Assembly (NCBI GenBank): GCA_963797095.1
Contig: CAWCNY010000006.1
Location: 608,001-672,000 of the forward strand
Length of the DNA stretch: 64,000 nucleotides
DNA from: an uncultured Chloroflexia bacterium
GTDB taxonomy: Bacteria; Chloroflexota; Chloroflexia; QHBQ01; JADMIH01
Reading direction: 5' to 3'
This document shows positions 13,132 through 31,395 of the stretch, one piece after another (positions within the stretch are counted from its first letter, which is position 1; each line of letters starts with the position of its first letter). The notes below the pieces were generated by a model. It saw only the letters and a program-made list of their open reading frames with translations. It ran no database searches and was not told the origin of the DNA. The position numbers were made by a program, and so were the translations under genes.

Positions 13132-16100
13132 TTACTTCTTGCTGCGTGCTCCGCGCCCGCCTGCCACACCTGACACCGCTTTCTTGGCCTCGCTCTGCTT
13201 GGGTGGTGGGGGCGTGCCCAGCCCGCCTGAGTTGAGGCCGGCAGTTATACCGCCATCTTTCTCGCGGGCCATGCGCTCCATCTCACTCTTCATCACTGAG
13301 AGGCGGTCATTGTCAGGGTCGAGCCTGAGCAAACGCCCATAAAGGCGAGCGGCTTGCCCGTATTCTCCCAGGGCCGTCAGTTGCTTGGCGAGACTGTAGT
13401 GGCCGGGCACATCCTGGGGCGCTAGGGCCAGTAGCTGGTGCAGCGCGGCAATGGCCTCTTCGGTACGGCCTTCATGGATGAACAGTTCGGCCAACGAGCG
13501 CTCTCCCTCCACTGCCTCCTTGAGCATACCGCTTTGCACATACATATTGAGCAGGTGCTGGCGGGCGTCCACGTCGCGCGGGGCGATGCGCACTATTCGC
13601 TCGTAGATCCCTATAGCCTGGTCGTGCTGCCCCATTGTGTAGTGCAGGTCGGCGGCCTTGCGATAGGTTCTGATAGCGTCCTTAAGCAGCCCAGCCTTCA
13701 ACTGTAGCTCGGCCAGCGTATTAAGCTCTCGCAACCCGTATTCGGTCATACCTAGCTTGAGATACATATCGCTCAACTTGCGGCGCACAGCCACGTTGTT
13801 CGGGGCCAGCTTGGACATATGGCCCAGCGTTTCCAGCGTCCGCTCGTTGTCGTTGTTCTTCTGGAAGAGCACCAGCAGGTCGTTCAGTTCGGCCAGTGCC
13901 TGGTTTAGCTGCCCCTGCCTGAAGTAAATATCGGCCAGGCGGGTGTAAACTGAGTAGTCGTTGGGCATGATCTGCTTGAGAGCTTGCAAAGCGCCCATCG
14001 CGCCGTCCCAGTTGTTCTGCGAGGCATTGGCCTCGGCCAGCGAGTAGTAAAGCTGGATAGGCTCCGATACCTGCGCGAACGCATACTGCGGCCTCGGAGA
14101 TTGGATCGTGAGGTCGCCGCTCTTCTGCGCAACATCATCCAGCCCGCCGTGAGTCTTGAGAATCTCCAGCACCCGGTTGTAATGCAGCGCCGCCACAGCC
14201 CCGCCACCCAGGTCCTTGCCGGTGCTCTTTCCCATGAGAGCCAGGTCGCCACGATACTGGCGCATCAGGATCTCAAGCAGAAGCCACGTCTTGTCGATGT
14301 CGCGCGTCTCGGCTGTAGCCAGCAACACCAGGCCCTGGTCCAGCGCGTCGGCTGCTATCTCCATAAGATCAGAGCGCCCAGCCAGCACCGCCAATCCATA
14401 ATAGATCGCGGGGTGAGGTTTCCTGAACCCTTCCGGCTTGAGCGCCATATTCAACTCTTCGAGGAAGAGGCGGTTAGTGCTCTTACGCTTGCTTGCGCGC
14501 TCCAGGATGCTCTGGAGCGCATCCCATGACGTGATCTCGTTGACCCCGGCGAGCGTCACATAGAGGCGGGCCAGCGCCAGGTCGTTGCCTGGGTCAAGAT
14601 GCAGGGCGCGGCTTAGTTCCAGCAGGGCATCGCTCGACTTGCCAAGCACGCTCAGATATGTGCCCATAGCGAGGGCCACTTCCGACGAGTTGGGCAATTT
14701 GGCCTTAAGCCCCTCGGCCTCTTCCAGGGCGCGCTCGACGTTGCCGTTACTGTAGTGCTTCTCGGCCACTCCCAGCAGCGCTTTGGCGGCCTCGTCCACC
14801 TTGCCCGCATCCAGCAAAAGTACCCCCAGTCTGCTCAGGAGCATCGGATTACCGGGGTCGATTTGCAGCAGCCTGCGACAGACTTCCGCTGCGTTTTCAG
14901 GATCGTTGCGCGCCACATACGTATCCATCACCGTCGTATATTTGGTAATGGCCTCTTCGACGCGACCGAGTTGCAGGTAAATATCGCCCAACATGATGTG
15001 GACGGGGAGATAGCCGGGATCGGCGCTCAGTACCGCCATACAGGAGTTGATGGCGACATCCCACTTGCCCTCGGCCATGGCCTGCTCGCCTTCCGCAATC
15101 AGCCTCTGCGCTCCCAGGGCACCTGTGCCGCCTTCGGAGAGACCGCCCGAGGGCATAAGCTGGCTATCGAGTGGGCTGCGTGCCAGGTAGTGGGTGCCTG
15201 GTACCACTTTGCGAGAGCTATCCTTCTTTGCTTCCTCGGCGGGTAGTGCCACCGTACCGGGCACCACCAGTTGGGCTGTTCCGTCCTCAGCCGTTTCTTC
15301 CACATCGCCGTGCTTAATGGGGCCGCTGGCGTTCAACTGGTCGCTGTTGCCCGTGCCCGTTACCGATGCTGCGCGCAAATATTCGGTGATCGAGCGGAGA
15401 GCGCCACCTGCTGTTCTCATCAGCGAGGTCGGCTTATCCTCCCGCACGGCGGCCTGAAGTCCCTCCGTCCCTCCCTCGATTATGGATGTGCCGCCTTCCT
15501 CGCTCAGCGGCCCGCCATGCCCCAGGTCTAGACGTGTAGCATCTTCGCCTACAGGAGCCACATCTGTAATATCGGGCAGGTGGCTCGGATCGAGCCAGTT
15601 GCTGCCGCCCTTGCTGATACCCATCAGCTTGCTCTGAATACTCTTGTTGTACAGGTCCTGGGCGCGTCTCTCTAACTCAGGTATCTGTGGGTGGTTGAAT
15701 TTCCGTGCTTTGAACAGGCTTACCAGGTTGCTGTACAGAGATGATGCCCTTCCCGGGTTGTGGTCGGCGATATGCGCGTCGGCGGTAGCCATGTAAAGCT
15801 CTATTAGCTCATCGGCTTCCGCCCGACCGATCTGTTCGAAGTCGATCATTCCGAGGGCGCGCTCGAAAGCGGTGGCTGCTTTGGCATAGGCGCGCTGGGC
15901 AGAATAGCACTGGCCCAGTACGTAGTTAGCCGACATCGCGAACTCGGGGTCCTGAAGGGCGCGTTCCAGCATGGGGATGGCGAGGTCGGGCCTGCCCATC
16001 TGCTGGTGGAGCAGTCCGGCGCTGTAGAACACCGCTCCGCGCTTGGCTCCAGCGCGTACTGCCCCATCGTAGAATTCGAGGGCGGCTCGGAAATCGCCCC

Positions 16101-16839
16101 TGGTTTGGGCTTCTGTGGCCTGCTCAACCAGGGCTAACGCCTCAGGTGGGTCTTCCTGCGCCTGGATCAGCCCTGTGCCTGGGGCAACCGACTGGCGCTG
16201 ACCGCCAAAATCGCTGCCGTCGAGAGTGACAGTGCCTGCGTTCTCGGCTATCTTTCGTTTGAGGTTGTATGCCCAGCGCCTGATCTCGGCGTTTTCGGGG
16301 TCGAGAGCAGACGCCGCTTCGGAATAACCCTGGGCCTCGGCCAGGTGGCCTTCTTCGAGGGCGATCTGCGACAGGGCCAGGTGCTCTGCTGCCTGGGCTT
16401 GCTTGTCGCCCACCTCCTGTGTGAGGTCGAGCAAGCGCACCCGCAATTCTTTATCTCTGGGGGTGGCTCTTGCCAGGTCCCGCAAGGCGCGAATTGCTTC
16501 GTGAAACTGGTTCTTTTGGGTGTAGAGGTCGGCCAGCCGCATGTAGGTGGCCCTGGCCTGGTCTGTGTTCCCTGTCGCGAGGTGGATCTCGGCGAGACGA
16601 TTCACCCCGAAGAGGTCGCCCGGGTCTTCATCGACGAGAGCCTCGTAGGCTTCGAGAGCCTGGGCCCAACGACGGAGACGAAACAGGCACTGTGCCATGT
16701 TCCGGCGAGCCGTCATATCGTCGGAGAACTCGGCGAGGGCGCGCCCATACTCTTTCATGGCGCGCTCCCACTGGTTAGCCCAGGCGTACTCGTGGGCGCG
16801 CTTCATTGCGGTGTCGAAAATTGCCTTATTGCCCGCCAT
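13132..16839 (-). CDS. Large multi-TPR protein (1235 aa)
   Basis: Many TPR-like helical repeats separated by a low-complexity linker. Confidence 0.8.
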   Translation of the reverse strand: MAGNKAIFDTAMKRAHEYAWANQWERAMKEYGRALAEFSDDMTARRNMAQCLFRLRRWAQALEAYEALVDEDPGDLFGVNRLAEIHLATGNTDQARATYMRLADLYTQKNQFHEAIRALRDLARATPRDKELRVRLLDLTQEVGDKQAQAAEHLALSQIALEEGHLAEAQGYSEAASALDPENAEIRRWAYNLKRKIAENAGTVTLDGSDFGGQRQSVAPGTGLIQAQEDPPEALALVEQATEAQTRGDFRAALEFYDGAVRAGAKRGAVFYSAGLLHQQMGRPDLAIPMLERALQDPEFAMSANYVLGQCYSAQRAYAKAATAFERALGMIDFEQIGRAEADELIELYMATADAHIADHNPGRASSLYSNLVSLFKARKFNHPQIPELERRAQDLYNKSIQSKLMGISKGGSNWLDPSHLPDITDVAPVGEDATRLDLGHGGPLSEEGGTSIIEGGTEGLQAAVREDKPTSLMRTAGGALRSITEYLRAASVTGTGNSDQLNASGPIKHGDVEETAEDGTAQLVVPGTVALPAEEAKKDSSRKVVPGTHYLARSPLDSQLMPSGGLSEGGTGALGAQRLIAEGEQAMAEGKWDVAINSCMAVLSADPGYLPVHIMLGDIYLQLGRVEEAITKYTTVMDTYVARNDPENAAEVCRRLLQIDPGNPMLLSRLGVLLLDAGKVDEAAKALLGVAEKHYSNGNVERALEEAEGLKAKLPNSSEVALAMGTYLSVLGKSSDALLELSRALHLDPGNDLALARLYVTLAGVNEITSWDALQSILERASKRKSTNRLFLEELNMALKPEGFRKPHPAIYYGLAVLAGRSDLMEIAADALDQGLVLLATAETRDIDKTWLLLEILMRQYRGDLALMGKSTGKDLGGGAVAALHYNRVLEILKTHGGLDDVAQKSGDLTIQSPRPQYAFAQVSEPIQLYYSLAEANASQNNWDGAMGALQALKQIMPNDYSVYTRLADIYFRQGQLNQALAELNDLLVLFQKNNDNERTLETLGHMSKLAPNNVAVRRKLSDMYLKLGMTEYGLRELNTLAELQLKAGLLKDAIRTYRKAADLHYTMGQHDQAIGIYERIVRIAPRDVDARQHLLNMYVQSGMLKEAVEGERSLAELFIHEGRTEEAIAALHQLLALAPQDVPGHYSLAKQLTALGEYGQAARLYGRLLRLDPDNDRLSVMKSEMERMAREKDGGITAGLNSGGLGTPPPPKQSEAKKAVSGVAGGRGARSKK

Positions 16840-17234: not shown

Positions 17235-18047
17235 ATGTCGCAGATCCAATACATATTTAACCAGATAACGGTCTCCACAGTGCTGGATGTGCTGGCGGTG
17301 GCGCTGATTTTCTACTGGCTGCTGGCGGTTGTGCAAGGCACGCGGGCTGTACAACTGGTGCGGGGGATCATAATATTGTGGCTGGCGTCGGCGCTGGTTT
17401 CGACCCTGTTTCAGCTATCGACATTGACATGGCTGATACGCAATTCGGGGGTGGCGCTGCTGGTGGCGATCCCGATCATATTCCAGCCGGAGCTAAGGCG
17501 GGCGCTGGAGCAGTTGGGGAGGACGGGGAACTGGCTTGGGCGTGGGCAGTTGGGGTCGTGGGGCGGGCGGAAGGTGCTGGAACGTGCTATCGAGGAAGTG
17601 TCTGCGGCGGCGGGATTGCTTGCGCGGCAGCAGCATGGGGCGCTGATAGTGCTGGAGCGGCAGACGGGGTTGCAGGACTATGCGGATAAGGGTGTGCAGT
17701 TGGACGCGGAAATATCGCGGCAGGTGCTGGCGAATATCTTCTATCCAAACTCACCACTGCATGATGGGGCGGTCATCATACGGAATGGGCGGATCGCAGC
17801 AGCAGGGGCGGTGCTGCCCCTGTCGGATAATGTGACGGGGCCGCAAAATTACGGGACGCGGCACCGGGCGGCAATCGGCATCTCAGAGTTTTCCGACGCG
17901 ATAGCGGTGGTGGTGAGCGAGGAGCGGGGGACCATATCGGTAGCGGCAAACGGTAGGTTGGTGGGTAATCTATCGAGCGAGCGGTTGCGCAAGCTGCTGT
18001 ACGAGCTATTTCACCTGAGAGACCCCGAAGCAAAAGACGGAACTTAA
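17235..18047 (+). CDS. cdaA: Diadenylate cyclase CdaA
   Basis: Three N-terminal TMs, FQPELRRALE, PLHDGA, GTRHRAA, VSEERG. Confidence 0.95.
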   Translation: MSQIQYIFNQITVSTVLDVLAVALIFYWLLAVVQGTRAVQLVRGIIILWLASALVSTLFQLSTLTWLIRNSGVALLVAIPIIFQPELRRALEQLGRTGNWLGRGQLGSWGGRKVLERAIEEVSAAAGLLARQQHGALIVLERQTGLQDYADKGVQLDAEISRQVLANIFYPNSPLHDGAVIIRNGRIAAAGAVLPLSDNVTGPQNYGTRHRAAIGISEFSDAIAVVVSEERGTISVAANGRLVGNLSSERLRKLLYELFHLRDPEAKDGT

Positions 18048-18080
18048 CAAAAAAACTACCCAAATGGCCCTAGCATTTGC

Positions 18081-18094
18081 AGAACTTATGTTCT
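18081..18094. promoter_or_regulatory. Putative LexA (SOS) box
   Basis: AGAAC-TTAT-GTTCT overlapping a TATGAT -10 candidate upstream of the sigma factor. Confidence 0.6.
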
Positions 18095-18119
18095 ATGATG
18101 GTGCTAGGAGGTAACCGAA

Positions 18120-18806
18120 TTGGGTGAGAAGATTGAACCAGAAAAGCCAGGTGATCTGGAGCTTGCCCTGGCAGCCCACGCAGGAGACGCCAACGCGCGA
18201 AACGCCCTCTACTTGAGGTACCGGTCGTTGATCGGCAAGCGCATCATACCCGCCAAGCGCCTGGCGCGAACCCTGGCAGAGCAAGGCTCACCAATTGGCC
18301 CCGATGATGTCGAGCAGGAGTCGTTCCTGATCTTCTGCCGCTTGCTTGAGGAGTGGAACCCTGAGACCGCGCCGTTCGCGCCCTTTCTCGCAGAGAAGAT
18401 TACGTACGCCGCTCACGATTATGTGCGTGAAGCGCAGCACCTGAGAAGCTCGCGCGTGCGATGGGCTCCTATAAAGGCCGACCCAGGCCTGCCCCTTAGC
18501 GTGAACTCGCACTGGGGTGCGCAGCACAAGGAAGGGGAAGCCACGGTATCTCCCCTGATAGGCAAACTCTATATGCTGGGGCCAGACGCCGCCGAAGTGG
18601 TCCTGAGCGCGGAGCAGTGGGAAGCCTTAGTCAGCCACTTGAGTGAGGACTGGGCGCGGCTCTTGCGCCTGCGCTTCTGGGAAGACAAGTCCAGCAAGCA
18701 GATCGCGCAAAGCGAAGGCTGCTCTCAGCGCACAGTAGACCGCACTATCAAGTCCGCGCTCGCCGATCTGCGCGAGATCGTCCAGGAAGAATGGGACATG
18801 CCCTGA
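18120..18806 (+). CDS. Alternative sigma-70 family factor (regions 2 and 4)
   Basis: DDVEQES...F..F...I region 2; LLRLRFWEDKSSKQIAQSEGCSQRTV HTH; TTG start after AGGAGG. Confidence 0.8.
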   Translation: MGEKIEPEKPGDLELALAAHAGDANARNALYLRYRSLIGKRIIPAKRLARTLAEQGSPIGPDDVEQESFLIFCRLLEEWNPETAPFAPFLAEKITYAAHDYVREAQHLRSSRVRWAPIKADPGLPLSVNSHWGAQHKEGEATVSPLIGKLYMLGPDAAEVVLSAEQWEALVSHLSEDWARLLRLRFWEDKSSKQIAQSEGCSQRTVDRTIKSALADLREIVQEEWDMP

Positions 18807-19134: not shown

Positions 19135-19566
19135 TTACTCTGCAACGCGCAAAGCACATTCAGAAATGGAGGTGATAACATCCTGGGGCGTAGGCGGGTC
19201 GCCGGGCACACGAAAAGTGATCTCCGCATAATGGTTCAAGGGATAAGACGATAGCCCTGGCATCTCCAACTTGGCCCACTGTCCGCCGTTTATGGCAGCA
19301 TCACCGACGGCAATAATGGCGGACGGCTGTGGCAGCGAAGCCAGCTCCCGCAAGGTAGGATCGAGATTGCGTGCAAGCAGCAGTCCGGTCAGCAGGAGAA
19401 TATCAGCCTCCGCCGCCGACTGCACAAATCGCACGCCCATCTCACGCAGCCGCACCTCGAATCGAGGCGCAAGCAGCGAAGCGCACACCTCAGCATCCGC
19501 ATCCGGCCCGCCCATATGCAGATGGTACACAGCCACAGACTTCCGACGTGCCAAACCAGCAAACAT
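19135..19566 (-). CDS. NuoB/HycG-like small subunit lacking the Fe-S cysteines
   Basis: ADILLLTG, IIAVGDAAINGG and VPGDPPTP align to the family motifs, with the Cys positions substituted. Confidence 0.8.
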   Translation of the reverse strand: MFAGLARRKSVAVYHLHMGGPDADAEVCASLLAPRFEVRLREMGVRFVQSAAEADILLLTGLLLARNLDPTLRELASLPQPSAIIAVGDAAINGGQWAKLEMPGLSSYPLNHYAEITFRVPGDPPTPQDVITSISECALRVAE

Positions 19567-19577
19567 CTACGTCTCCT

Positions 19578-19610
19578 ACTCGTCACTCGTCACTCGTCAC
19601 TCGTCACTCA
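19578..19610. repeat. Heptamer tandem repeat (ACTCGTC)x4
   Basis: Read directly from the spacer. Confidence 0.9.
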
Positions 19611-21086
19611 CGGCCCCGTCAGCCACGGCACCGCCGCCCACTGCAAGATTGGTTCCAGCCGAGATGCCGATACCAGGAACAGCGCGACCTGGGCCACTGC
19701 TAGCGCAAGCGTTAGCAGAAGCACCGGATCGGTAAGCCGTTCCGCCCAGTCGCTCTCTTCGACCATTGCATCATGCGACCATAGTCGGTCGCGGTTTGCC
19801 AGCCAGGAGGCCCCCACGAGTCCTGACCCCGCCAGCAGCATACCCAGCCACAGCCCTCCCGAATTGGCAGCGCTCTGGGCTATCAGCACCATACCCGCAA
19901 AGCCGCCAAACGGTGGAAGCCCCACCAGAGAAGCCACACCTATGATCACAGCCCATCTACCCCCTGCTACTAATAGGGGCACCGCCAGTGCGACGTTGCT
20001 CGCGACCAGGATAGCCCCCACCGCCCCGGTCTGCGAGCCGGAAAGGACCCCATACACCGCCCAGGACACCGCAACGGCTACAGTCATCGCCTTCAGGTTA
20101 GCGATCCTCGCATCCACCTCATCAGAAGCCCGCTTTGGCCGCTGGATAGTTCCCAGGGCGCGTAACCCCGCGAGTAGCGCGCCCATCGCGCCGAGCCACC
20201 CCGCAGCCGCGCCGCGTGCCAGGCTCCCCTCCACCGGGGCCAACAACAGCAGACCTGCTACCAGGGCCACCGGCGCGCACGCTCCAAGCGCGACGAGTGC
20301 TGCTGCGGGCGCAGACTTTATCAGGTCACCCCACGAGGCGGTGAAAGGCATACTACCTGCCCACACCAGCAACCCCACGGCGAGCAGACCTATACCGAAT
20401 TGCAGCAGCCCGCGATTCTCCAGGCTGAAACCGTAGCGCTCAATGAGAGCGGCACTAACAACCCAGATCGAAGCGGCGATAATAGCCAGAGCCAGGTGCT
20501 TGAAAGCCGCGGCGTACCCCCTGGCTTCCTGCCTGTTTTCAATACTATCTTCTCGGTCTTCTGCGGAATTCCCATCTTGCCTTGTTGCGCCTGTGGAACG
20601 CTCAGGCAGCGCCAACGCGGCTACTATTAGCGCCGGTCCAAAGAGAAGCAGTGGTGTGATAAAGGGATCGGCGGCCAACACGGCGCAGGTAAGGAGCGTT
20701 GCCGTACCGCCTAGGCCAACCGGTACCCAGGCCGCGCCTCTTTGCGATTCTACTTCCTCCGAGCTGGAAGGTATGATCCAGTAAAAGAGTGCAGCGCACA
20801 GCAGCGAAACATCGGCGGCAGTCAATATGTAGCGCGTTGGCGCTGACGTGGTAACAGCGATGCCGAAAAGATTGGCACCAACAGCCTCCGGTGTGAGGGC
20901 CAGGAATGTCGCTTCCAGGAGGAGTCCCGCGCACACAGCCAGCAAGCCACCGAGCCGCAGCCACGGACCGTAGTCGTCGGCAATCCTTTGCAGGCGCCGG
21001 GCCTCCATCAGCAGAGTACCAAGCGCACCCGCGATGAGGGGCACGATTATCGTCCAGAGGAGGGCCGGGCTATTCATCTTCGACAT
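19608..21086 (-). CDS. Divergent Mrp/NuoL-M-N (HyfF-like) antiporter-type membrane subunit
   Basis: AAFKHL, AGSMPFTASWGDL..SAP, SLVGLPPFGGFAG. Confidence 0.7.
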   Translation of the reverse strand: MSKMNSPALLWTIIVPLIAGALGTLLMEARRLQRIADDYGPWLRLGGLLAVCAGLLLEATFLALTPEAVGANLFGIAVTTSAPTRYILTAADVSLLCAALFYWIIPSSSEEVESQRGAAWVPVGLGGTATLLTCAVLAADPFITPLLLFGPALIVAALALPERSTGATRQDGNSAEDREDSIENRQEARGYAAAFKHLALAIIAASIWVVSAALIERYGFSLENRGLLQFGIGLLAVGLLVWAGSMPFTASWGDLIKSAPAAALVALGACAPVALVAGLLLLAPVEGSLARGAAAGWLGAMGALLAGLRALGTIQRPKRASDEVDARIANLKAMTVAVAVSWAVYGVLSGSQTGAVGAILVASNVALAVPLLVAGGRWAVIIGVASLVGLPPFGGFAGMVLIAQSAANSGGLWLGMLLAGSGLVGASWLANRDRLWSHDAMVEESDWAERLTDPVLLLTLALAVAQVALFLVSASRLEPILQWAAVPWLTGP

Positions 21087-21882
21087 CCTCCGGTGCCGGC
21101 TCAGCCTCGAAGTCTGTCAGGTCAGCCTCCTCTGCAGCGGGTTGATCGACAGGTGCTACCACGACCAGTTCTGTTGAACGTGGAATTATCCCGTCGCGGG
21201 CATCGAAGATTGCGTTCAGGTTGAGCGTATCATATCGCTCGCCAACGGTGAGCCAGAGGTAGCTGGCAAGCGTACCGGCCCCAATCCTGGCGAGCGCGCC
21301 CAGTGCCAGCACCACACCGGGCGGCGTGCTGTTGCCCATCACGTACAAGAGGAGAAACGCCCCATTGAAAAGCGATAGGATACCAAGCCCCAATTTGACC
21401 GCCGATCTCCCCCCGTCAACAGTCAATACCAGCACAGCTGTGAGCACCACCCAGAAGAAAGCCAGCAAATCGCCTTCGTTGATGCCAAAGGGGTTAATCC
21501 GGGCGAGGCCATAACCCGCCACGCCTGCCAGTAATGCCAATCCCCACAGGAGAATCCAATCCTGTGGTTGGAATGTCCTCGAACGTCGTGTGCGCCTGCG
21601 TACAGCCGGGCGCGTGATACTGGCGGGTGGGTATGTTTGGTCGTCGGGCGATGCCGTCCGAAAGATAGTGAGCGCTATAACTACACAGGTCGAGAGGGCG
21701 GCTACAAACTCGACCAATGCAACCAGGCTGCCCGCGCCAGCCGATGGTGATATCCACACGAGCCAGCCTATCCCTGCCCACTGGAGAAAGAAAGCGCCCA
21801 AAGCGAGCCTCGTGTCCTTCTGGGTAAGTAGGAGGAACCCGCCGGTAGCGATAATAATGGTAGGTAGTAGATTTGGCATCAT
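21070..21882 (-). CDS. Membrane subunit, HyfE-like
   Basis: About 6-7 TMs, LALGAFFLQ; lies between two antiporter-like genes with overlapping stop/start. Confidence 0.5.
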   Translation of the reverse strand: MMPNLLPTIIIATGGFLLLTQKDTRLALGAFFLQWAGIGWLVWISPSAGAGSLVALVEFVAALSTCVVIALTIFRTASPDDQTYPPASITRPAVRRRTRRSRTFQPQDWILLWGLALLAGVAGYGLARINPFGINEGDLLAFFWVVLTAVLVLTVDGGRSAVKLGLGILSLFNGAFLLLYVMGNSTPPGVVLALGALARIGAGTLASYLWLTVGERYDTLNLNAIFDARDGIIPRSTELVVVAPVDQPAAEEADLTDFEAEPAPEDVEDE

Positions 21883-23711
21883 CGTGTGATCGCCAGCAGC
21901 GTCAATAGCGCCAGCAGTACATCCAGGGGCAGAAAATATCGTCCTTCCAGGCGTTCCATAAGCCTGCCCAACGCTGCTCCCAGCCTGCCAAGGAGCGCCC
22001 CTGCGTCATAAATACCGCGCTCAAGCCAGGCTAGCGAAAGCCACCATACGAAGGCAGGCGGCGCGGGGCGCAAGGCTTGTGGGGTTTCCGAGGGCGCTTC
22101 TCTGGTCCTGGGTCGTCCTTCTTGCCCCGCCTTCAATAAACCCGCTGAACGATCCTGAAGCCTGTCAAGCGCCGTAGGGAGCAACGCACCTGCCTCTACG
22201 CGTGACGTGGCCGATGCTCGAATGAGCCAGCCCAGCAACGCAAGCAGAATCAACCCCGCACCCAGCATGGTGAGCGGCAGCATCACATCCCCTTCGACAA
22301 TGCCAGGCCAGGGCAGCCCCAGCGACTGACCTATGCCTGCGACATCTGCCATCCTCTCCACGTATGGCAGCCACAAACCCGGTAGGATGCCGCCCATGAC
22401 GACAATGCCTGCGAGCACGTAGCCTATCAGGTCCAGCACCACACGGTAACGTTGGTCCGCTGAAGCGTCAGACGTTGTCCGCTCTTGCGCCGTCGATTGG
22501 GCGAGATGCAAGGCTGTACCGCAGGCTGACAGGACGGCCGCCCCCAGCAGGATAATCGTGAGGGAGGGAGTGCGCGATTCCAGTAAGCTTGTGGACAGCA
22601 GCCACAAGCCAACGAAACCGGCGGTGATGGGCACACCCGCCAGTGATAAGCCCGCTACCGTGCGGGTCATCCAGGCATAGCCGGGCGCTCGGTCAGCCAT
22701 TTCCAGGGCGAGCATCCCAAGCCCGAAGGTGGCGAACAGGGCCAGCGCAGCCCATCGCCCGGCGGGACTATCCATTCCAAGCGCCCACACGACCAATCCC
22801 AGCCAGTACGCAGTTATGGCGGCCTGCCACCGCGAGGTGCCTGCCCACATGTAGACGCCTGCGCCGCCCACTACGGCAGTAATGCCTCCGAGCACCGCCA
22901 GGGTCGCCATCGTGCTTGCCCACTCGCCGGGCGTCGAGCCTGTGAGCGCCCCTTCGGTGATCAGCGCCTGCAACCGGAGTATAAGCAGCAACACGGGCGC
23001 GCCCAGGGCCAACCCCTGTACTGCCTGCATAGCCCCCTCTCCTGTGAGCGCGCTCCAGCCTGTGAATGGCACCAGCCCCACCCACAACACCACCCACCCC
23101 ACGACCAGCGCAAGGGGCCAGAGGGTAAGCGCGGATAGCGACAGTGTATCCAGGCTGTATTCGCCGCCGGTGGTCCGTCCTACCAGCAGAACAGCGCCCA
23201 ACAGGAGGACCGCGCCGGTTGCAATCGCCACCCTTTGCCGGGCGAACCAATCGGCTTTGACTTCGTCTGAAAGCGCCCACACAAGGAGCACAACCAGCAG
23301 AATCTGAGCGGCGAACGCACGCAAATCCAGCGTAAAAGCGAGGCTATAGAGCGCAGCGATCAGCCCCACGCTGGCGGCAATCTTGAGGGGTGGGTTCTGT
23401 TCGTCCGCTCCTGATCCCACCTTAAGTACGGCGAGCAGGCCAATTGCCAGCACCCACCCACCAAGCCCATTCGAGAGGGCATCGCTTCTGAAGACAGATG
23501 CCCCAAGCCAGGCCGCGATATTATCGCCGGCTACCGGTTTGCCCGCCCCATATGCGAATCCTTCAAGTATGAGGCTCGTTGTGAACGCGGCCGCTATTGC
23601 CAGGATGGCAACGATACGTGCGATCCAGTCGCGGCGCGTCCCGGCAGGCAACAGGCCGAGGGCAGCGCACACCAATGCCCCTATTATCAATGTCAGTAAA
23701 GCGTATACCAT
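21879..23711 (-). CDS. Divergent Mrp/NuoL-M-N (HyfB-like) antiporter-type membrane subunit
   Basis: FRSDALS, VGLVPFTGW, LSLAGVPITAGFVGLW. Confidence 0.7.
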   Translation of the reverse strand: MVYALLTLIIGALVCAALGLLPAGTRRDWIARIVAILAIAAAFTTSLILEGFAYGAGKPVAGDNIAAWLGASVFRSDALSNGLGGWVLAIGLLAVLKVGSGADEQNPPLKIAASVGLIAALYSLAFTLDLRAFAAQILLVVLLVWALSDEVKADWFARQRVAIATGAVLLLGAVLLVGRTTGGEYSLDTLSLSALTLWPLALVVGWVVLWVGLVPFTGWSALTGEGAMQAVQGLALGAPVLLLILRLQALITEGALTGSTPGEWASTMATLAVLGGITAVVGGAGVYMWAGTSRWQAAITAYWLGLVVWALGMDSPAGRWAALALFATFGLGMLALEMADRAPGYAWMTRTVAGLSLAGVPITAGFVGLWLLSTSLLESRTPSLTIILLGAAVLSACGTALHLAQSTAQERTTSDASADQRYRVVLDLIGYVLAGIVVMGGILPGLWLPYVERMADVAGIGQSLGLPWPGIVEGDVMLPLTMLGAGLILLALLGWLIRASATSRVEAGALLPTALDRLQDRSAGLLKAGQEGRPRTREAPSETPQALRPAPPAFVWWLSLAWLERGIYDAGALLGRLGAALGRLMERLEGRYFLPLDVLLALLTLLAITR

Positions 23712-23734
23712 CTACATTTCAGGCTTATCTGCCA

Positions 23735-24862
23735 TCATCGCTCGGTGCAAGGCAGACAAAGGTCAAGAGATAACAGCAAGAGCCTCAAGTCCTCCAAATG
23801 CGCGCCGCGTAGCAGGCCCGGCAAGATTGCCAGCGATGGATATGATCCGGCGCTCAGGTGGATGCCGCGCAACCCCTCCGGCGCGCCGTCCACCCAGCAA
23901 AATACCTCGCCGCGCGGCCCCTCCACTCTGCTTATCCCCTGCCCGGCGCGCAATTCAGCCGCTCCCCTTGTCCTTACAGGCCCGCCGGGCAGGTCGTCCA
24001 GCGCTTGCTCGACCACCCGGAAACTCTCCAGGCATTCCAGCAGGCGCACCGCCAGTCGCGAGAAGGCATCGCCGTTGCGCTGTACAATCATGGTCACTGC
24101 CTCGTCCTCATACGCGCCAGTGGGGAAAGCCGCCCGAAGGTCCAGCGCCACTCCGCTGGCACGCGCCACCGGTCCGCGCAGCCCGGCAGCTACAGCCTCC
24201 CTACCTCTAATCACCCCCAGGCCCACCAGCCGGTCGGCGATACCCTTGTTATTGATAATAGACACTATATGCGCGCGTAGGGGTCGTTCTACATGGCGCA
24301 TCGCCAGCGCCAGCGACCTGCTCGCGGTTTCGTCGCTATTGTGACTGAGGCCGCCGAAAGTTATTAGCCCAGGTTGCTGGCGCGCTCCCGCCCACTCGCT
24401 CAATGCGTGCACCACGCGCTCCCGCAGGTCGCGCAACGCTGCTTCGCGCTCAGGCAAGTTCAGTGCTTCCATTGTGTCGGCGGCGTTTCCCAGGTGCGCG
24501 ATGATCCGCTCGATCTCGGCCAGCACTAGCCGTAGGTAGGCGGCGCGTGGCGGCACCAGCAGGTGCGACATGCTTTCCACAGCCTGCACAAAACACAGCA
24601 AGTTGGCCTGCGAGCAAGGAGCGCACAGGCTCTCAACCACCGACAGGGCGCGTATCCAATCCAGCCCCCCATCGGCGACCCGCTCCTCAAGGCCAATGTG
24701 GTTGTACCCGTATTCCGCTTCGGCGACCTCTATCGTGGCCGAAGTCGTCAGCATATCGCTTGCGGCTTTGACTTCGAGCCTGATCTGCATGGGCCAGGGA
24801 AGCCAGGGGCTGTAGGGGCCGATCAATTGTGGTTTGTGTATTGCAGGTTGCGAATCGATCAT
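23735..24862 (-). CDS. Group-4 [NiFe]-hydrogenase large subunit / NuoD-like protein
   Basis: IGPYSP, GYNHIGLE, ESLCAPC, VPPRAAYLR..LAEIERI, GPVARASG, EGPRGE, C-terminal DLCLPCTER. Confidence 0.85.
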   Translation of the reverse strand: MIDSQPAIHKPQLIGPYSPWLPWPMQIRLEVKAASDMLTTSATIEVAEAEYGYNHIGLEERVADGGLDWIRALSVVESLCAPCSQANLLCFVQAVESMSHLLVPPRAAYLRLVLAEIERIIAHLGNAADTMEALNLPEREAALRDLRERVVHALSEWAGARQQPGLITFGGLSHNSDETASRSLALAMRHVERPLRAHIVSIINNKGIADRLVGLGVIRGREAVAAGLRGPVARASGVALDLRAAFPTGAYEDEAVTMIVQRNGDAFSRLAVRLLECLESFRVVEQALDDLPGGPVRTRGAAELRAGQGISRVEGPRGEVFCWVDGAPEGLRGIHLSAGSYPSLAILPGLLRGAHLEDLRLLLLSLDLCLPCTER

Positions 24863-24898
24863 GCGTGAAAAGTAAGATGTGTTCCGTACTCAGGCCGC

Positions 24899-25453
24899 TT
24901 ACCGGAAAATCACCGACAGGCGCACTTGAAGCTCGCCTTCGGAAAGCCGGGCCGACGGGTAGATGCTTCCTATGGAATCCAGGATGCCGGTTGACGTGGT
25001 GATAATTATCGTATACACAATGGATTCGGTGGCGTAGAAGTAACGAACTACAGCCTCGCCCATCGAACGCGGTGGCGCATCCGGTGGCACACTGTCAGTC
25101 TTGCGTTTGCGCCTGCGGCGGCCAAGTGGTGGCATCTCCTCGACTGCGCTGCCCCGGCTTTCCGGAGTCGTGGCAAATGCTTGAGCGAGGCGCGCACGCT
25201 CGCCCGTCATGCTGATGAAGATCGCACCGGCACGCCGGAAAGCGCCGGCGATCTCGGCAGCATGCGCGTCGCGGAAATAGAGCCTGACCTCGCGGTCGTC
25301 CTCTTCGCGCACCACCGCGAAGGCCGCAAGCTCTCTACCCAGCGTCTCTTCAGCACCCTCAGGTTCGTCGTACCAGCCGTTTTCGCCCGGCTCATCCCAG
25401 CTTGGTAGATCATCACCGGGTATGTGGGACGCGCCGTTATTGTGTCCATCCAT
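24899..25453 (-). CDS. NuoC (30 kDa)-like subunit, divergent
   Basis: C-terminal SIGSIYPSARLSEGEL...F resembles NuoC Si..iyP.A...ERE; first gene of the operon. Confidence 0.55.
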   Translation of the reverse strand: MDGHNNGASHIPGDDLPSWDEPGENGWYDEPEGAEETLGRELAAFAVVREEDDREVRLYFRDAHAAEIAGAFRRAGAIFISMTGERARLAQAFATTPESRGSAVEEMPPLGRRRRKRKTDSVPPDAPPRSMGEAVVRYFYATESIVYTIIITTSTGILDSIGSIYPSARLSEGELQVRLSVIFR

Positions 25454-25639
25454 AGAATTATTACTCGGTAGATCGCCTTATTCATATAATTTTAGCTTTT
25501 GGGCGACAGGGGTTACTATAACAGCCGTTCGCGGGGAGCGTCAAGCGTGGTGGATACTGCGTATTGCGTATTCTCGGCCACTTCTATCGCTGTCGATCAT
25601 CAATCGCCGGGAGGTCATTGGTGCTATAATTAGTGAGCT

Positions 25640-26857
25640 ATGCACGTAGCGTTCAACGGATATTTCTGGGATCAACCTCGCACAGGGTCGGGCCAATATT
25701 CGAGGCATTTGTGGTCTGCTCTCGATGCGATAGCCCCTCCATCCGACTGTTTCACTCTATTACTGCCCCCAGGCATGCCCCCACTTGAGGTACCCGTAAG
25801 TGAGCGTGCTGTAGTTGCGGAAAGCGCGCCTATCCCTCTAGTTGGTGGCAGGCTGGGCAAACTGGACAAGATTACGTGGGAGAGTGCGGGAGTGGCCCGT
25901 GCCACGCACCGCACCCGCGCTGATATCCTCCACGCCCCATACCTGTCCGCTCCCCTGCCCGCGCTAAGGCTGCCCAGGATAGTTGTTACAGCGCACGATA
26001 TGATCCCGTGGGTCGTCCCCGGCTACGCAGGGCCTCTCTCCGTCCGCCTCTATCTGCGGCTTGCCACTGCCTGCGTGCGGAGGGCCGACCTGATCCTGGC
26101 CGATTCCAATGCCTCTCGCCGCGACGTAATAAAAGTGCTGAAAGTTCTCCCCGGCAAAGTGCACACCGTTCACCTGGGCATGGAGAGCCACCCAGACTAT
26201 ACTCCACAGCAAATAGCCGAAGTGAAAGCAAAGCATGGTCTGCCTGAGGACTATGTGTTCTATCTGGGCGGGTTCGACAGGCGGAAGAATGTGCCGTTGC
26301 TCTTACGTGCATGGCACTCCGCCCTCTCCCGAATGGATGGGCCAACTCCTGTGCTGGCGATAGGCGGGAGCGTGCCCAAACCAGGCGGCGTCTTCCCCGA
26401 TGTAAGAGGCGAGGCGCGGCAACTGGGATTCGGCCAGGAAGGCGGACCTGTACACTTCCTGGGCCGTGTGAGCGAGCAAGATAAGCCATTGCTTATGGCC
26501 GGGGCGCGTCTGTTTGCCTACCCTTCGGCCTACGAAGGTTTTGGTCTCGACCCACTTGAAGCCATGTCCGTGGGGTGTCCTGTAGTCTCTTCCTCAGGCG
26601 GTTCGCTGGAGGAAGTGGTCGGTACCGCCGGCCTCGTGGTCCCGCCCAACGACGAGGCGGCGCTGGCGAACGCTATTGTGTGCGCCTGGAACAACCCTGA
26701 CCTTCGTGCTGACCTATCCGGGAAAGGCCGCCTGCGGGCCATGAACTTCACGTGGCACAGAACCGCCGAGCAAACGCTTGCGCTGTATAGAAAGCTTCAA
26801 CTTCACACAAACCAGGAACTCGGAACTCGGAACTCGGAACTCGGAACTCGGCATTAG
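25640..26857 (+). CDS. Glycosyltransferase family 4
   Basis: TAHDMIP, RKN, PSAYEGFGLDPLEAM; extended -10 TGcTATAAT at 25622-25630. Confidence 0.9.
   Translation: MHVAFNGYFWDQPRTGSGQYSRHLWSALDAIAPPSDCFTLLLPPGMPPLEVPVSERAVVAESAPIPLVGGRLGKLDKITWESAGVARATHRTRADILHAPYLSAPLPALRLPRIVVTAHDMIPWVVPGYAGPLSVRLYLRLATACVRRADLILADSNASRRDVIKVLKVLPGKVHTVHLGMESHPDYTPQQIAEVKAKHGLPEDYVFYLGGFDRRKNVPLLLRAWHSALSRMDGPTPVLAIGGSVPKPGGVFPDVRGEARQLGFGQEGGPVHFLGRVSEQDKPLLMAGARLFAYPSAYEGFGLDPLEAMSVGCPVVSSSGGSLEEVVGTAGLVVPPNDEAALANAIVCAWNNPDLRADLSGKGRLRAMNFTWHRTAEQTLALYRKLQLHTNQELGTRNSELGTRH
26815..26851 (+). repeat. Heptamer tandem repeat (GGAACTC)x5 inside the ORF 3' end
   Basis: Read directly; encodes ELGTRNSELGTR. 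Confidence 0.9.
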
Positions 26858-26877
26858 GAATCAACGGAGAAGAACGA

Positions 26878-28029
26878 GTGCGCGTAATGTGGATATGGCA
26901 CGCGGCGGTGGTAGCCGAATACAGGAAGCCTCTGTATCAACTGGCTAAACACCGCAATCTGGACCTGACGCTACTGATCCCAAAGAGATGGCCTGAGCGT
27001 GCGGGTCAGATGGTCCGTGCCGAGTCTGATTGCCTGGAGGGCGACGCGCCCAACTACCGTGTTATCAAGGCGCGCACACTGTTCACCGGTCTCTATTACA
27101 TGTATCTGTTCCCAAGTCTGCTGTACCAACTGCTCAAATATCGCCCGCAAATTATCTACTGCTATGAAGAGGCCCACACTCTCATGTCGGCGCTTGTGCT
27201 GTTAATACGGCGCATCTTCATGCCTGAGAGCAAGGTCTTGCTCTACGCGGCGCAGAATATCAAGAAGCGCTACCCGGTGCCGTTCAGGTGGTTCGAGCGC
27301 TATTGCTTCCGAAGGGCTGATGCCATCCTCGCGTGCGGCACCCAGGTAGTGCGCACGCTCCGTTCAAAGGGCTATCGGGGCGCTCTTCACGTAGTGGCCC
27401 TCCCAACCGATATGGATACGTTCGCCCCTGATCCCGTCAGGAGACAAGTTGGCCGTACTGCTCTTGGCCTCGCCGACAATGACCTGGCAATTGGCTACGC
27501 CGGTAAATTCGTAGAAGAAAAGGGCTTGCGGACGCTGTTGGATGCTTTCGAGATTGTGGCAGTGAAGCACCCGGATGCTCATCTGGTGCTTGCGGGTGGT
27601 GGCCCGTTGCGCCGTGAGTTGGAGGAGGCATCTCAACGCGCCGGGTTGGCGGGCCGGGTGCATATACCCGGCTTGCTGCATAATTCGGATCTGCCTCAAT
27701 TTATGAACGCCCTCGATCTCTTCGTGCTACCATCCGAGACACGTAGCAATTGGCGCGAACAATTCGGGCGGGTGGCGGTAGAAGCTATGGCGTGCGGCAC
27801 GCCTGTCGTGGGGTCCGATTCGGGGGAAATACCCGCTGTACTTGGCGACTCAGGCCTCACTTTTCATGAAGGCGATAAGGATGCCCTGGCTAACTGTCTC
27901 CACGAAGTCTTATCCAATCCTGATCTTCGCGCTCGTCTATCCAGGAAAGGGCGCGACCGAGCCGTCCGGCATTTCTCGCTTGAGCAGATCGCTCGCAAGC
28001 ACCTCGCCATCTATGAGGAGTTGGGGTGA
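26878..28029 (+). CDS. Glycosyltransferase family 4
   Basis: EEKG, PSETRSNWREQFGRVAVEAMACG. Confidence 0.9.
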   Translation: MRVMWIWHAAVVAEYRKPLYQLAKHRNLDLTLLIPKRWPERAGQMVRAESDCLEGDAPNYRVIKARTLFTGLYYMYLFPSLLYQLLKYRPQIIYCYEEAHTLMSALVLLIRRIFMPESKVLLYAAQNIKKRYPVPFRWFERYCFRRADAILACGTQVVRTLRSKGYRGALHVVALPTDMDTFAPDPVRRQVGRTALGLADNDLAIGYAGKFVEEKGLRTLLDAFEIVAVKHPDAHLVLAGGGPLRRELEEASQRAGLAGRVHIPGLLHNSDLPQFMNALDLFVLPSETRSNWREQFGRVAVEAMACGTPVVGSDSGEIPAVLGDSGLTFHEGDKDALANCLHEVLSNPDLRARLSRKGRDRAVRHFSLEQIARKHLAIYEELG

Positions 28030-29633
28030 GTGCCGGTGAACGCTCGGCGCTGCCTGTCCTCGGCAGATGGGCGCTGGTGGCGGCGCTCGCTTTCGCGTTC
28101 CTGACCGCCTGGATCAACAACCCCGGCGCTGATGGCTCATACGCGCTAGGCAGGGCCAATTCGCTCTTGCGAGATGGCTATTATTCACAGGCTGCTTCTC
28201 TCCTAGAAAACACCCTCAAGACTTACCAGGGGCCGCAGGTGCGCCTCTCCCTTTCATATGTCTACCTTGCCCGCCGTGACGCGGTGCGCGCCGAGCGGCA
28301 GGTGAGGATCGCCCTGCCCTCGGCCTCCCCCACTTTGCGACTTTTTCTGCTAGCTCAACTGGGGCGCGTATTACGCTTCGTCGGGCGTCCGGATGAGGCT
28401 CTTGCCGCTTGGCAGCAGGTCGAGAACGAGGCTTTGCCCTACCTGGACATGGCAGAGGTGCGTGCCGCCACGCGGTCCTCCCAGTGGAACATAGCTATGC
28501 TCCTGTGGGCGCGGGGTGATTGGGATGCCGCCAGAGCAGGGCTTGAATCGCTACTTGATGGTGATGATGTCTATTCGCTGTCCGCGCGTGTGAAACTGGC
28601 CCAGTTGCTGGCGTTTTCCGATAGCGACTCTTCTGCAAGGTTGGAAGACGAGGCGCGTAGCCATCTTCCCCTCGTAGGCGTAGGGGCCGCAATCCCTAAC
28701 CTGCGTGTGCCGGGCCTTGAAGAAGGTCTCGCGAACGGCGAAATAGAGAGCATCCTTGCCACGCTCGACAAGGCGCGAATCGAAGTTGCGGCGACGGCCC
28801 AAAGGGGTGTTGGCGATGCGGTTGTGCAGACGCTATGGGGTGGGGCATACCTGCAAATGGGCGAAAACCTCCTTGCCAAACTCTATCTGCAACAGGCAAT
28901 CTCCCTCCAACCCGATTATGCGCCAGCCCACGCACGCCTGGCACTGGCCCTATTTACATTAGGCGACGAACAAGCGGCTCTGGCTCAAGTGCAAACAGCA
29001 GTACAACTGGACGGCAACGATCCTCTCGCCAGGCACGTGCTGGCGCGTATCTACACGGCGACGGGCAATTGGGATCAGGCCGAGGAGCAACTTCAAGCCC
29101 TGAACCGGCTCCAGCCAGGCGGCCTGGAAACTCACCTTGAATGGGCCGAGTTTTACCGCTTGCAAGGTGAATATGATCAAGCCGAGAGCGAGTATATAGA
29201 GGCCGTAAACGCCCAGATCGTGGCAAGCGCTCTACCTGGCATAACGACCGATGGCGTAGAAGAGGACACCAACGCCGCCGTGATCCTTGCGCGCTTCTAC
29301 ACGGACGTGCGCGGTTTCGGCTGCGAGAAAGGGCTTCCCGCAGCCCGCGAAGCAGTATCCCTACGCCCCGATGACCCCGCCGGGCTGGATGCGATAGGTT
29401 GGGCGCTGGTGATCTGCGACCAGCCCCAGCAAGCCTTATCCTCCTTGAAGAACGCTATCGCTCGCTCGCCCAACGAGCCGCGCTACCACTTCCATCTTGC
29501 ACACGCCTACAGAGACCTCGGCATGTACGATGACGCCCGCGATCAATACAACAGAGTGATCGACCTCGACCCAGGCGGCTCCTGGGAGCACCTGGCGCTA
29601 ACCGAATTGGTCAACCTCTCGCAAGGGGAATGA
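28026..29633 (+). CDS. Exported or membrane-anchored TPR protein
   Basis: N-terminal hydrophobic segment followed by multiple TPRs. Confidence 0.8.
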   Translation: MSAGERSALPVLGRWALVAALAFAFLTAWINNPGADGSYALGRANSLLRDGYYSQAASLLENTLKTYQGPQVRLSLSYVYLARRDAVRAERQVRIALPSASPTLRLFLLAQLGRVLRFVGRPDEALAAWQQVENEALPYLDMAEVRAATRSSQWNIAMLLWARGDWDAARAGLESLLDGDDVYSLSARVKLAQLLAFSDSDSSARLEDEARSHLPLVGVGAAIPNLRVPGLEEGLANGEIESILATLDKARIEVAATAQRGVGDAVVQTLWGGAYLQMGENLLAKLYLQQAISLQPDYAPAHARLALALFTLGDEQAALAQVQTAVQLDGNDPLARHVLARIYTATGNWDQAEEQLQALNRLQPGGLETHLEWAEFYRLQGEYDQAESEYIEAVNAQIVASALPGITTDGVEEDTNAAVILARFYTDVRGFGCEKGLPAAREAVSLRPDDPAGLDAIGWALVICDQPQQALSSLKNAIARSPNEPRYHFHLAHAYRDLGMYDDARDQYNRVIDLDPGGSWEHLALTELVNLSQGE

Positions 29634-29714: not shown

Positions 29715-30464
29715 CTATCTCCCTTCCAGGTAAGCATCCACGCCCAACAAGTATGCTGCATTCACCAGCATGGTATCTCGATCATCTTCATTATCCAAAT
29801 TATATATATAGATGTTGGGAATGTTCGTGGAATCGAGGGTAGGTGAGGCGACTAAAGTGTAGCCATCAGGCAGAACCCTCATAAACGGCAGCCATTCGCG
29901 TGGGAGCTCTTTCGTGCTGAAAGGCTCATGCCCTTCGTCGAGCGCTTCCGCCGTGTTCCACGAGAGGGTGGCAGCCCATAACCTGTAATACCGTGTGCTC
30001 TCCGTGATATGCGAACTGAGGGCCAGCGCAAAGCGATTGTTCGGCGTGACAGTGATCCAGGTGCTCTTTACCTTGGTGTACTGGCCTGGGATCTGCAATT
30101 CGTTCCTGTCGGTGCGGGCCAGTGTGTTCCTCCCCTGCCACAACTCCAGGCCCGGAACATAATCGTCCATCAGGTAATTGAACCCTATCACATACACATC
30201 GTCCTTGCCCCGGCCCGTAGTTACAGCGAACAGGCCGGTCTTAAGTCTGCTCGATTCCCCGGTCGCGATGTCATACACGAAAACCTCATAGTCGTGCCTG
30301 AACCTCCTGTTGTCTGTGAAGATAAGGATGTGATTGCCGTCCCGTGTAAACTCTCCAAGCAGGTCAGTTTCAAAGCCGTCAGGCGTCGGATTAGGCAGTG
30401 TGGCAATATTCTGCGAGCGCGGTTCGTTTTACGTCCCTTCGGTTGTGATCTCTTCAACATCCAT
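29715..30464 (-). pseudogene. Hypothetical gene with an early in-frame TAA (or a 187-aa ORF from 30278)
   Basis: ATG at 30464 overlaps the mqnA stop; reads MDVEEITTEGT*NEPRSQ... and continues in frame into the 187-aa ORF. Confidence 0.5.
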
Positions 30465-31291: not shown

Positions 31292-31395
31292 AGCAAACTC
31301 CTTTTGACGGTAAGTTGTCTCTCGATCTTGCCACAGCGCCGTGCCCTGCGCAAGCCACTTTACCAACTTGGATACTGGTGCTCACAGCGGTGCCC

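Follow-up and report, generated by a model that had tools for sequence, protein, structure and literature searches.

Six adjacent genes, here designated A to F, lie in a 64,000-nucleotide stretch of contig CAWCNY010000006.1 (positions 608,001 to 672,000; hereafter the window) from the genome of an uncultured Chloroflexia bacterium (GCA_963797095.1), and on balance they probably encode a non-redox membrane complex that derives from [NiFe] hydrogenases of group 4 and from Ehr relatives of these, performs no canonical pumping and holds a simple tetrathiolate metal site. A cytoplasmic head of A, B and F (NuoC-, NuoD- and NuoB-like) would sit on a membrane base of C, D and E. Because the iron-sulfur ligands of the small subunit F and the lysine and histidine residues of the antiporter-like subunits C and E are lost, the complex would be unable to wire electrons to or from the large subunit B or to pump by the canonical route; these same losses support the view of the first-pass annotation that the cluster does not encode an H2-evolving, electron-wired pump.

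The key residues of two of the head subunits, B and F, show an inverted pattern. B carries the motif LCAPCSQAN at the first cysteine site (L1) and ends in DLCLPCTER at the second (L2), both CxxC pairs thus being kept, whereas at the ligand positions of F a GG replaces the CC pair, Ala replaces the third cysteine and DPP replaces CPP, leaving none of the four cysteines. Across the genus, the fourth cysteine of B is a Ser in 4 of 13 sequences; among 11 sequences of F the third cysteine is kept in three and the other three cysteines in none. In B, other residues stand in place of the L1 Arg and His and of the N-terminal Glu; its closest named relatives are Ech/Coo-type proteins (29-34% identity, E about 1e-42 to 1e-47). 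F aligned with the genome's own NuoB by hhalign at 1.6e-10. The inversion had been proposed in the first-pass annotation; it is real in the window, and it recurs in a second family (locus L054).

Two further features of these subunits were observed. Residue 322 of B (in GEVFCW) is a family-specific invariant cysteine at a position where true hydrogenases have Tyr or His, and it is present in exactly those lineages without a detected iron-sulfur small subunit, including a sister family devoid of the [NiFe] cysteines. Residues 14-20 of F form a conserved YHLHMGG motif at the site of the NuoB CC pair (H17 in 11/11 and H15 in 10/11 genus sequences), and a conserved Asp stands at the former third-cysteine motif; a replacement His/Asp metal site in F is conceivable. 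The YHLHMGG motif does not occur in F of the Chlorohelix-type lineage described below.

C and E retain the antiporter fold. Among solved structures, the E family profile matched MbhH (6cfw_H, 3.2e-12), MbsH (6u8y_H, 5.1e-10) and NuoN/ND2 chains, and the C family profile matched MbsH' (6u8y_X, 1.6e-5) and ND5. The AlphaFold model of C (mean predicted local distance difference test score, pLDDT, 65.7) ends in a long C-terminal helix followed by the last membrane helix, as in NuoL, and in Foldseek it retrieved NuoN, NuoL, HycC, MbsH' and MrpA, with 164 matches at E <= 0.001 and a best value of 3.7e-9. For the key residues, the family profiles were aligned to the genome's own NuoL, NuoM and NuoN and the columns were counted (n=16 for C, n=15 for E). 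At the equivalents of the canonical Lys/His residues in transmembrane helices (TM) 7, 8 and 12, C of the window has W, Q and L, and E has W, C and M. Throughout the C sequences the TM7 Lys position is Trp in 13/13 genus members and Gly in three of the sister family, the TM8 His position is Gln, His, Phe or Tyr, and the TM12 Lys position is Leu, Val, Ile or Trp. In E, the TM7 Lys position is Arg in 13/15 sequences (Trp in the window, Cys in L022), the TM8 Lys position is hydrophobic, Cys, Ser or Gly, and the TM12 Lys position is Thr or Met (Arg in two sister-family sequences). The TM5 Glu of C aligned with hydrophobic, Cys or Ser residues in a stretch where the alignment is of low confidence. 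The loss of key antiporter residues noted at first reading is thereby confirmed for the Lys/His positions of TM7, TM8 and TM12.

That leaves A and D. Of the six proteins, only B (PF00346, 9.6e-39) and F (PF01058, 5.9e-9) had Pfam matches; with the cut-off relaxed to E 10, A, C, D and E still yielded nothing but a single stray DUF match; with NCBIfam, C and E gave weak C-terminal matches only, to the NuoM and MrpD models. The profile of A matched several NuoC chains weakly (E 0.26-0.9), each time in one and the same C-terminal segment, A aligned with the genome's own NuoC at 9.7e-4 (hhalign), and its orthologue in the sister-family locus L028 matched PF00329 above threshold (26 bits, 1.5e-5); by these comparisons A is NuoC-like. 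The model of D has seven helices (pLDDT 77.9) and returned generic seven-helix matches only in Foldseek, at E 0.036 or worse. When its helices 1-3 were compared by VIA-align, NuoJ/ND6 and MbhD were found at Z 6-7.4, a level shared with unrelated helical proteins; superposition gave a root-mean-square deviation of 1.8 A over 74 residues with 9g83_J and of 1.7 A over 73 residues with MbhD (6cfw_D, Z 6.1). A profile search of 1.84 billion representatives collected 138 relatives of D, and among the 51 remote ones PF00420 was matched in two and PF13244 in one; an Atlas look-up returned for D, at a score of 0.85, a cluster of which 16% of the members carry PF00420. No match of D to the genome's own NuoA, NuoH, NuoJ, NuoK or NuoI was obtained with hhalign. 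A HyfE/NuoK/NuoJ-like identity for D is thus a weakly supported lead. Within its predicted helices, E58 is present in 16/16 sequences and K163 in 15/16, the remaining one having Arg. Accordingly, the NuoC-, NuoD-, NuoB- and antiporter-like assignments of the first-pass annotation stand on Pfam, profile, hhalign and Foldseek evidence, and its HyfE-like assignment of D is left weak.

All six open reading frames (ORFs) are in the same orientation at the coordinates originally given (Table 1), and the two overlapping junctions described there are C/D (4 nt) and D/E (17 nt), the remaining gaps being 36, 23 and 41 nt. Because the junctions are tight or overlapping, the six genes are read as one operon. 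A promoter-like site precedes A and a terminator-like hairpin lies at the end of F; shuffled sequences contain at least as many sites of these kinds as the region does. A Pfam and ORF scan found no NuoH-, NuoI- or hyp-type gene among the ORFs of the cluster, as had been stated for NuoH/HycD, NuoI/HycF and hyp genes, and the operon contains no MrpE/F/G-type ORF. The source genome (8 contigs, 6.0 Mb, 93% complete) has a single match to NuoH (PF00146), which lies inside its one canonical nuoA-N operon (contig C6, 260-278 kb), separate from the cluster.

Table 1. Coordinates of the six-gene cluster and of neighbouring features in the window
Feature	Position	Strand	Description
A	24899-25453	-	184 aa; very diverged NuoC-like (30 kDa) subunit; variable N-terminus; basic, variable insert
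B	23735-24862	-	375 aa; group-4 [NiFe]-hydrogenase / NuoD-type large subunit; CAPC (L1), CLPC (L2); L1 Arg/His and N-terminal Glu replaced
C	21879-23711	-	610 aa; NuoL/HycC-like antiporter-like subunit; long C-terminal helix, then final TM helix
D	21070-21882	-	270 aa; family-specific seven-helix membrane protein; acidic tail
E	19608-21086	-	492 aa; NuoN/MrpD/MbhH-like antiporter-like subunit
F	19135-19566	-	143 aa; NuoB-like small subunit without any of the four [4Fe-4S] Cys ligands
Whole cluster	19135-25453	-	Six ORFs
Promoter-like site	25515..25544	-	About 60 nt upstream of A; 10/12 consensus positions and TG extension; suggestive only
Terminator-like hairpin and T-run	19136..19156	-	End of F; suggestive only
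Flanking genes	17235-18806, 25640-29633		One side: CdaA-type diadenylate cyclase, sigma-70 family factor. Other side: two GT4 glycosyltransferases, tetratricopeptide repeat (TPR) protein
TPR-repeat protein	13132-16839	-	1,235 aa, nearly all TPR repeats
MqnA-type ORF	30464-31366	-	PF02621 match (menaquinone biosynthesis)

The cluster is maintained within the genus. B was found without internal stops, at 57-70% identity, in 19 of 24 genus genomes (17/21 of the published ones and also the unpublished G016 and G022), and it was not found in G003, G006, G011, G017 and G021, which are 57-91% complete. Of the 12 genus loci that were fetched, 10 keep the six-gene order; G010 has its F on a different contig (243 bits), and in G013 (63% complete) F was not found, the match there being at the level of NuoB. 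The ratio of non-synonymous to synonymous substitution rates (dN/dS; Nei-Gojobori, unsaturated pairs from L018/L019/L021, L028/L029 and L026/L027) is 0.05-0.34 for every one of the six genes, placing the cluster under purifying selection. That the cluster is a decaying relic without function might be argued from the loss of both cofactor ligands and pump residues and from the lack of a Pfam match in four of the six proteins; the dN/dS values, the 19 genomes free of frameshifts and stops and a gene order conserved across families make this extremely improbable. The results support the original description of the cluster as intact and repurposed rather than decaying.

A sister family from the same taxonomic order (L025-L029) has genes A to E, its B without any of the four cysteines, and a small subunit of the F type was not found there with the F query used. 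Between B and C, L028 (6593-7072) and L029 carry a conserved 159-aa ORF with 84% identity between the two loci and no Pfam match. It was considered as a candidate small subunit and rejected, its likeness to the NuoB GxCxxxGG region being faint and non-significant.

What the kept cysteines of B hold can be approached through the [NiFe] maturation genes. A search of the source genome for hyp genes, as suggested in the first-pass annotation, found hypD on a contig other than that of the cluster, adjoining one true hydrogenase; in all, the genome has two genuine [NiFe] hydrogenases with small subunits, on contigs C4 (about 153-167 kb) and C2 (about 624-626 kb). Across the genus, HypD was found in 8/24 genomes and true [NiFe] large subunits in 9/24, largely the same genomes. 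Neither was found in 10 published cluster-bearing genus genomes that are 79-93% complete (G005, G007, G009, G010, G012, G014, G019, G020, G023 and G024; five of these are 90-93% complete). Three findings make it probable that the kept cysteines of B hold no [NiFe] centre: HypD was not found in these relatives, B has other residues in place of the L1 Arg/His and N-terminal Glu, and one bridging cysteine is movable to a neighbouring position. With no Hyp machinery found in these relatives and the second-sphere residues replaced, the pocket is most likely a simple tetrathiolate metal site (Zn, Fe or Ni), which could serve as a structural or sensing site. A large subunit that still carries a [NiFe] centre, acting as a sensor or catalyst for H2 (or CO/O2) that needs no iron-sulfur relay, would account for the two CxxC pairs, the CooH-like C-terminus, the hyp genes of the source genome and the Roseiflexus-type relatives that keep the ligands of both subunits. 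Set against the hyp-negative genomes and the replaced or movable residues, and against a sister family entirely without these cysteines, such a centre appears highly improbable.

The movable cysteine became apparent in 100 relatives of B and 17 locus proteins (overlapping sets), 103 of which could be parsed; the 14 others comprised 8 without the N-terminal region, 1 with another C-terminus and 5 Cys-less sister-family proteins. The 103 large subunits combine CxxC at L1 with C..C at L2 (72), CxCC with C..S (23), CxCC with C..C (7) or CxxC with C..S (1, L021). The extra cysteine at the third place of L1 is therefore found in 23 of the 24 proteins that have lost the second L2 cysteine, versus 7 of the 79 that have kept it. 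On a quick maximum-likelihood tree (119 rows) the CxCC with C..S combination needs five changes, of which well-supported branches force at least two. The covariation looks like a ligand swap that preserves four thiolates. Because loss of the L2 cysteine is paired with an extra cysteine in L1 in this way, the large-subunit cysteines are judged to be under selection.

The cluster is not confined to this genus. Among 301 genomes of the class, the B profile gave matches of 1e-53 to 1e-91, including every genome of families f6 (16/16), f7 (9/9), f10 (60/60), f11 (11/11), f14 (37/37) and f15 (5/5); cross-matches of the profile to NuoD lie at about 1e-46 to 1e-49, and the tally takes in five unpublished genomes. 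Eight loci of 18 kb each were fetched from six families. Homologues of B, D and E are in the same order in 8/8, B and D are separated by a long ORF in 7/8, and this ORF is antiporter-like in five (L052, L054, L059 and L057, which matches PF00361, and L056, by alignment only); an F homologue is present in 5/8, and the NuoC-like gene A is not present in the L057 and L054 loci. In a third lineage (L045/L060, proteins P0096-P0100) B, C and D are followed by an unrelated gene. By gene content, the common core of the family is B-C-D. No match to the genome's own NuoH or NuoI was found within the 18 kb of the eight wider-family loci, and in five near-complete genomes every PF00146 (NuoH) match lies at least 300 kb from the cluster or on another contig. 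Judged by these loci, the lack of an adjoining NuoH/HycD-type anchor and of an adjoining NuoI/HycF-type ferredoxin subunit sets the family apart from every characterised relative.

Comparison of these lineages revealed a gradient of ligand loss. At one end, the Roseiflexus-type loci (L053, L057) have RICGxCSFAH with the L1 Arg and His in B and CxxC at L2, all four cysteines in F (SCGGCD, GRCA, GCPP) and the TM12 Lys in E, the Glu/Lys motifs of C being unrecognisable; relatives of L057 occur in records titled Roseiflexus sp. (76-93% identity) and in Kouleothrix aurantiaca strain COM-B (62%). In L055, L056, L058 and L059 the L1 motif is partly lost, and F, present in L058 and L059, keeps three to four cysteines. 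The Chlorohelix-type locus (L054) has four cysteines in B with the L1 Arg/His replaced (Q...N), a Cys-less F, the TM5 WE and TM7 K in C and the TM12 Lys in E; its large subunit has relatives in a record titled Candidatus Chlorohelix sp. (96%) and in Chloroflexi bacterium 54-19 (62%). The genus of the window keeps the four cysteines of B, with no cluster in F and the Glu and Lys of C and the Lys of E lost. Finally, in the sister family B has lost the four cysteines and has a shortened C-terminus, C has lost Glu and Lys, and E has Arg at TM7 and TM12. By this comparison the cluster of the window stands at the degenerate end of a family that occurs in most of the sampled Chloroflexia families. 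The pattern of substitutions, which was to be tested in syntenic homologues, is not fixed, given the loss of all four large-subunit cysteines at one end and the retention of both subunits' ligands at the other. The claim of an undescribed system holds in so far as no matching description was found in the literature searched; the cluster is no oddity peculiar to one genome. Far outside Chloroflexota, large-subunit relatives 30-34% identical to the Roseiflexus-type protein occur in Patescibacteria, Bryobacterales and Terriglobia records (L076-L088).

Several observations weigh against a non-redox complex with a simple metal site. The Cys covariation is based on a small number of independent events and on sequence sets that overlap, and L021 has three of the cysteines only. 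The source genome itself has hyp genes and two true hydrogenases, so that a [NiFe] centre could still be inserted there; B ends in CTER like the CooH-type proteins, which need no C-terminal processing; and failure to find hyp genes in metagenome-assembled genomes only 79-93% complete is no proof of their absence. Furthermore, the conserved E58 and K163 of D and the mostly Arg residues at the TM7 Lys position of E (13 of the 15 relatives) would allow some ion transport.

The last two features, together with the antiporter fold of C and E and with less degenerate relatives in which C has kept its TM5 Glu and TM7 Lys and E its TM12 Lys, also suit the main rival. In this reading the membrane part would still transport cations in the manner of Mrp, by way of non-canonical residues, and the cofactor-poor head would be its regulator or plug. 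The Trp at TM7 of E in the window, the TM8 and TM12 columns of C and E throughout the genus and the lack of MrpE/F/G-type genes in the operon argue against it, and we regard it as unlikely. A further possibility is that the six proteins are alternative modules that join NuoH, NuoA, NuoJ and NuoK of the cell's canonical complex I, as in the cyanobacterial variant NDH-1. The cluster has no NuoH, NuoI or NuoA types of its own, the source genome offers one complete nuo operon with a single NuoH, and relatives carry two NuoH genes at other places in their genomes. Such borrowing is improbable, as quinone reduction would be beyond a head that lacks an N2-type cluster, neither co-location nor co-variation with nuo genes was seen, and D, which accompanies the cluster in every lineage, could be the anchor itself.

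In the preferred reading of a non-redox complex, the selected function would reside in the conserved B-C-D core and might be a conformational, scaffolding or regulatory role in the membrane, with D possibly still offering a residual path for ions. A bolder version extends to the whole family: most sampled Chloroflexia families would carry a complex-I-like machine free of NuoH and NuoI, and several lineages in which the [NiFe] pocket has turned into a selected tetrathiolate site without an electron wire would represent a new membrane-bound metal or redox sensor, or a non-redox conformational machine, evolved from a hydrogenase and with living intermediates of every step. We put this forward tentatively, as a rather doubtful possibility.

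One modular plan is ascribed to complex I, the membrane hydrogenases, Mrp and Ehr alike: head and membrane arm are joined by a subunit of the NuoH type. The Chloroflexia family appears to break this plan. It also offers a natural series that runs from a version with all ligands (L057) to ligand-free versions, all of those sampled being intact and those tested, in the genus and the sister family, being under purifying selection. Such a series can show which parts of the architecture serve which function, and what these complexes do after their redox chemistry is lost, a question open for all Ehr. Kouleothrix aurantiaca strain COM-B, a relative known from a strain record, makes biochemical, structural and expression work feasible.

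The surroundings of the operon were also inspected. The flanking genes for the CdaA-type cyclase, the sigma factor and the two GT4 glycosyltransferases (Table 1) were considered as parts of the system and set aside, since this neighbourhood is kept within the genus only and not in other families. Elsewhere in the window, the minus strand encodes the large TPR-repeat protein, and the MqnA-type match hints at a futalosine route to menaquinone. A look-up of sequencing runs listed two soil DNA runs with small shares (0.07 and 0.05) and no RNA run, which bears on neither expression nor habitat.

Published descriptions were compared with the cluster. A 2021 preprint mentions Ehr complexes in Chloroflexi in passing in the part available (bioRxiv 10.1101/2021.08.23.457424). 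For Chloroflexus aurantiacus, two complex I gene sets, both with nuoH, are described, and this cluster goes unmentioned in the available part of that genome report (PMC3150298); the available parts of PMC3144371, PMC4758237 and PMC10972752 likewise contain nothing on it. In the literature searched, we found no Ehr-type cluster without NuoH and NuoI and no pattern of kept large-subunit cysteines with a lost iron-sulfur cluster, and the supplements of bioRxiv 10.1101/2021.08.23.457424 may cover the family.

Set beside the known systems, the operon shares features with each and coincides with none. Like the group-4 [NiFe] hydrogenases, it has the L1 and L2 CxxC ligands in B; unlike them, it has neither the four small-subunit cysteines nor co-encoded NuoH-type (EchB/HycD) and NuoI-type (EchF/HycF) subunits. 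The Ech/Coo enzymes resemble it most closely in the L2 motif D-x-C-x-x-C-x-E-R and the unextended C-terminus of B, and they differ from it in EchB (NuoH), EchF (NuoI), the Fe-S small subunit and a link to hyp genes, all of which the cluster lacks, and in the L1 Arg/His and N-terminal Glu, which it has replaced. Of the hallmarks of complex I (Nuo/NDH-1), the N2 cluster in NuoB, the NuoH quinone channel and the Lys/Glu chains of NuoL/M/N are all wanting. The likeness to Mrp lies in the antiporter fold of C, whereas the TM7 and TM12 Lys, and probably the TM5 Glu, are replaced and there is no MrpE/F/G-type ORF; the structural comparison of D gave only an indecisive resemblance to MrpB/C. The MBH and MBS complexes of Pyrococcus furiosus provide the best solved-structure matches for E (MbhH, MbsH) and C (MbsH'); in contrast to the operon, they have their own MbhM (NuoH) and MbhN (NuoI), an Fe-S small subunit, a far larger number of Mrp-type subunits and Lys/Glu chains that are conserved. 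By subunit content, the operon falls outside the group-4 hydrogenases, complex I and Mrp alike.

The comparison with Ehr is closer. The six-gene Ehr (Hyq) type combines a large subunit derived from group 4 with a NuoB-like small subunit, two antiporter-like subunits and one small membrane subunit. The operon resembles it in the relation of B to group 4 and in setting a NuoB/C/D-like head beside antiporter-like membrane subunits, and for both the prediction is that they are no hydrogenases. It differs in keeping the large-subunit CxxC pairs, which Ehr lose, in a small subunit that has lost its cluster ligands, in having no NuoH/HycD-type or NuoI-type gene, and in a NuoC that is a separate, very diverged protein. 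Ehr are described, in the parts of the reports available, as group-4 hydrogenase relatives with large subunits devoid of the CxxC ligands and with an unknown function (PMC6349859; bioRxiv 10.1101/2019.12.18.881540; PMC10284858). By this definition of CxxC loss, and judging from the motifs of B, the operon is not an Ehr, and the sister family (L025-L029) is one. Its orthologous counterparts are the clusters in records titled Roseiflexus sp., Kouleothrix aurantiaca, Ca. Chlorohelix sp. and Chloroflexi bacterium 54-19, which have the same B-C-D-E(-F) order and, like the operon, no NuoH or NuoI neighbours.

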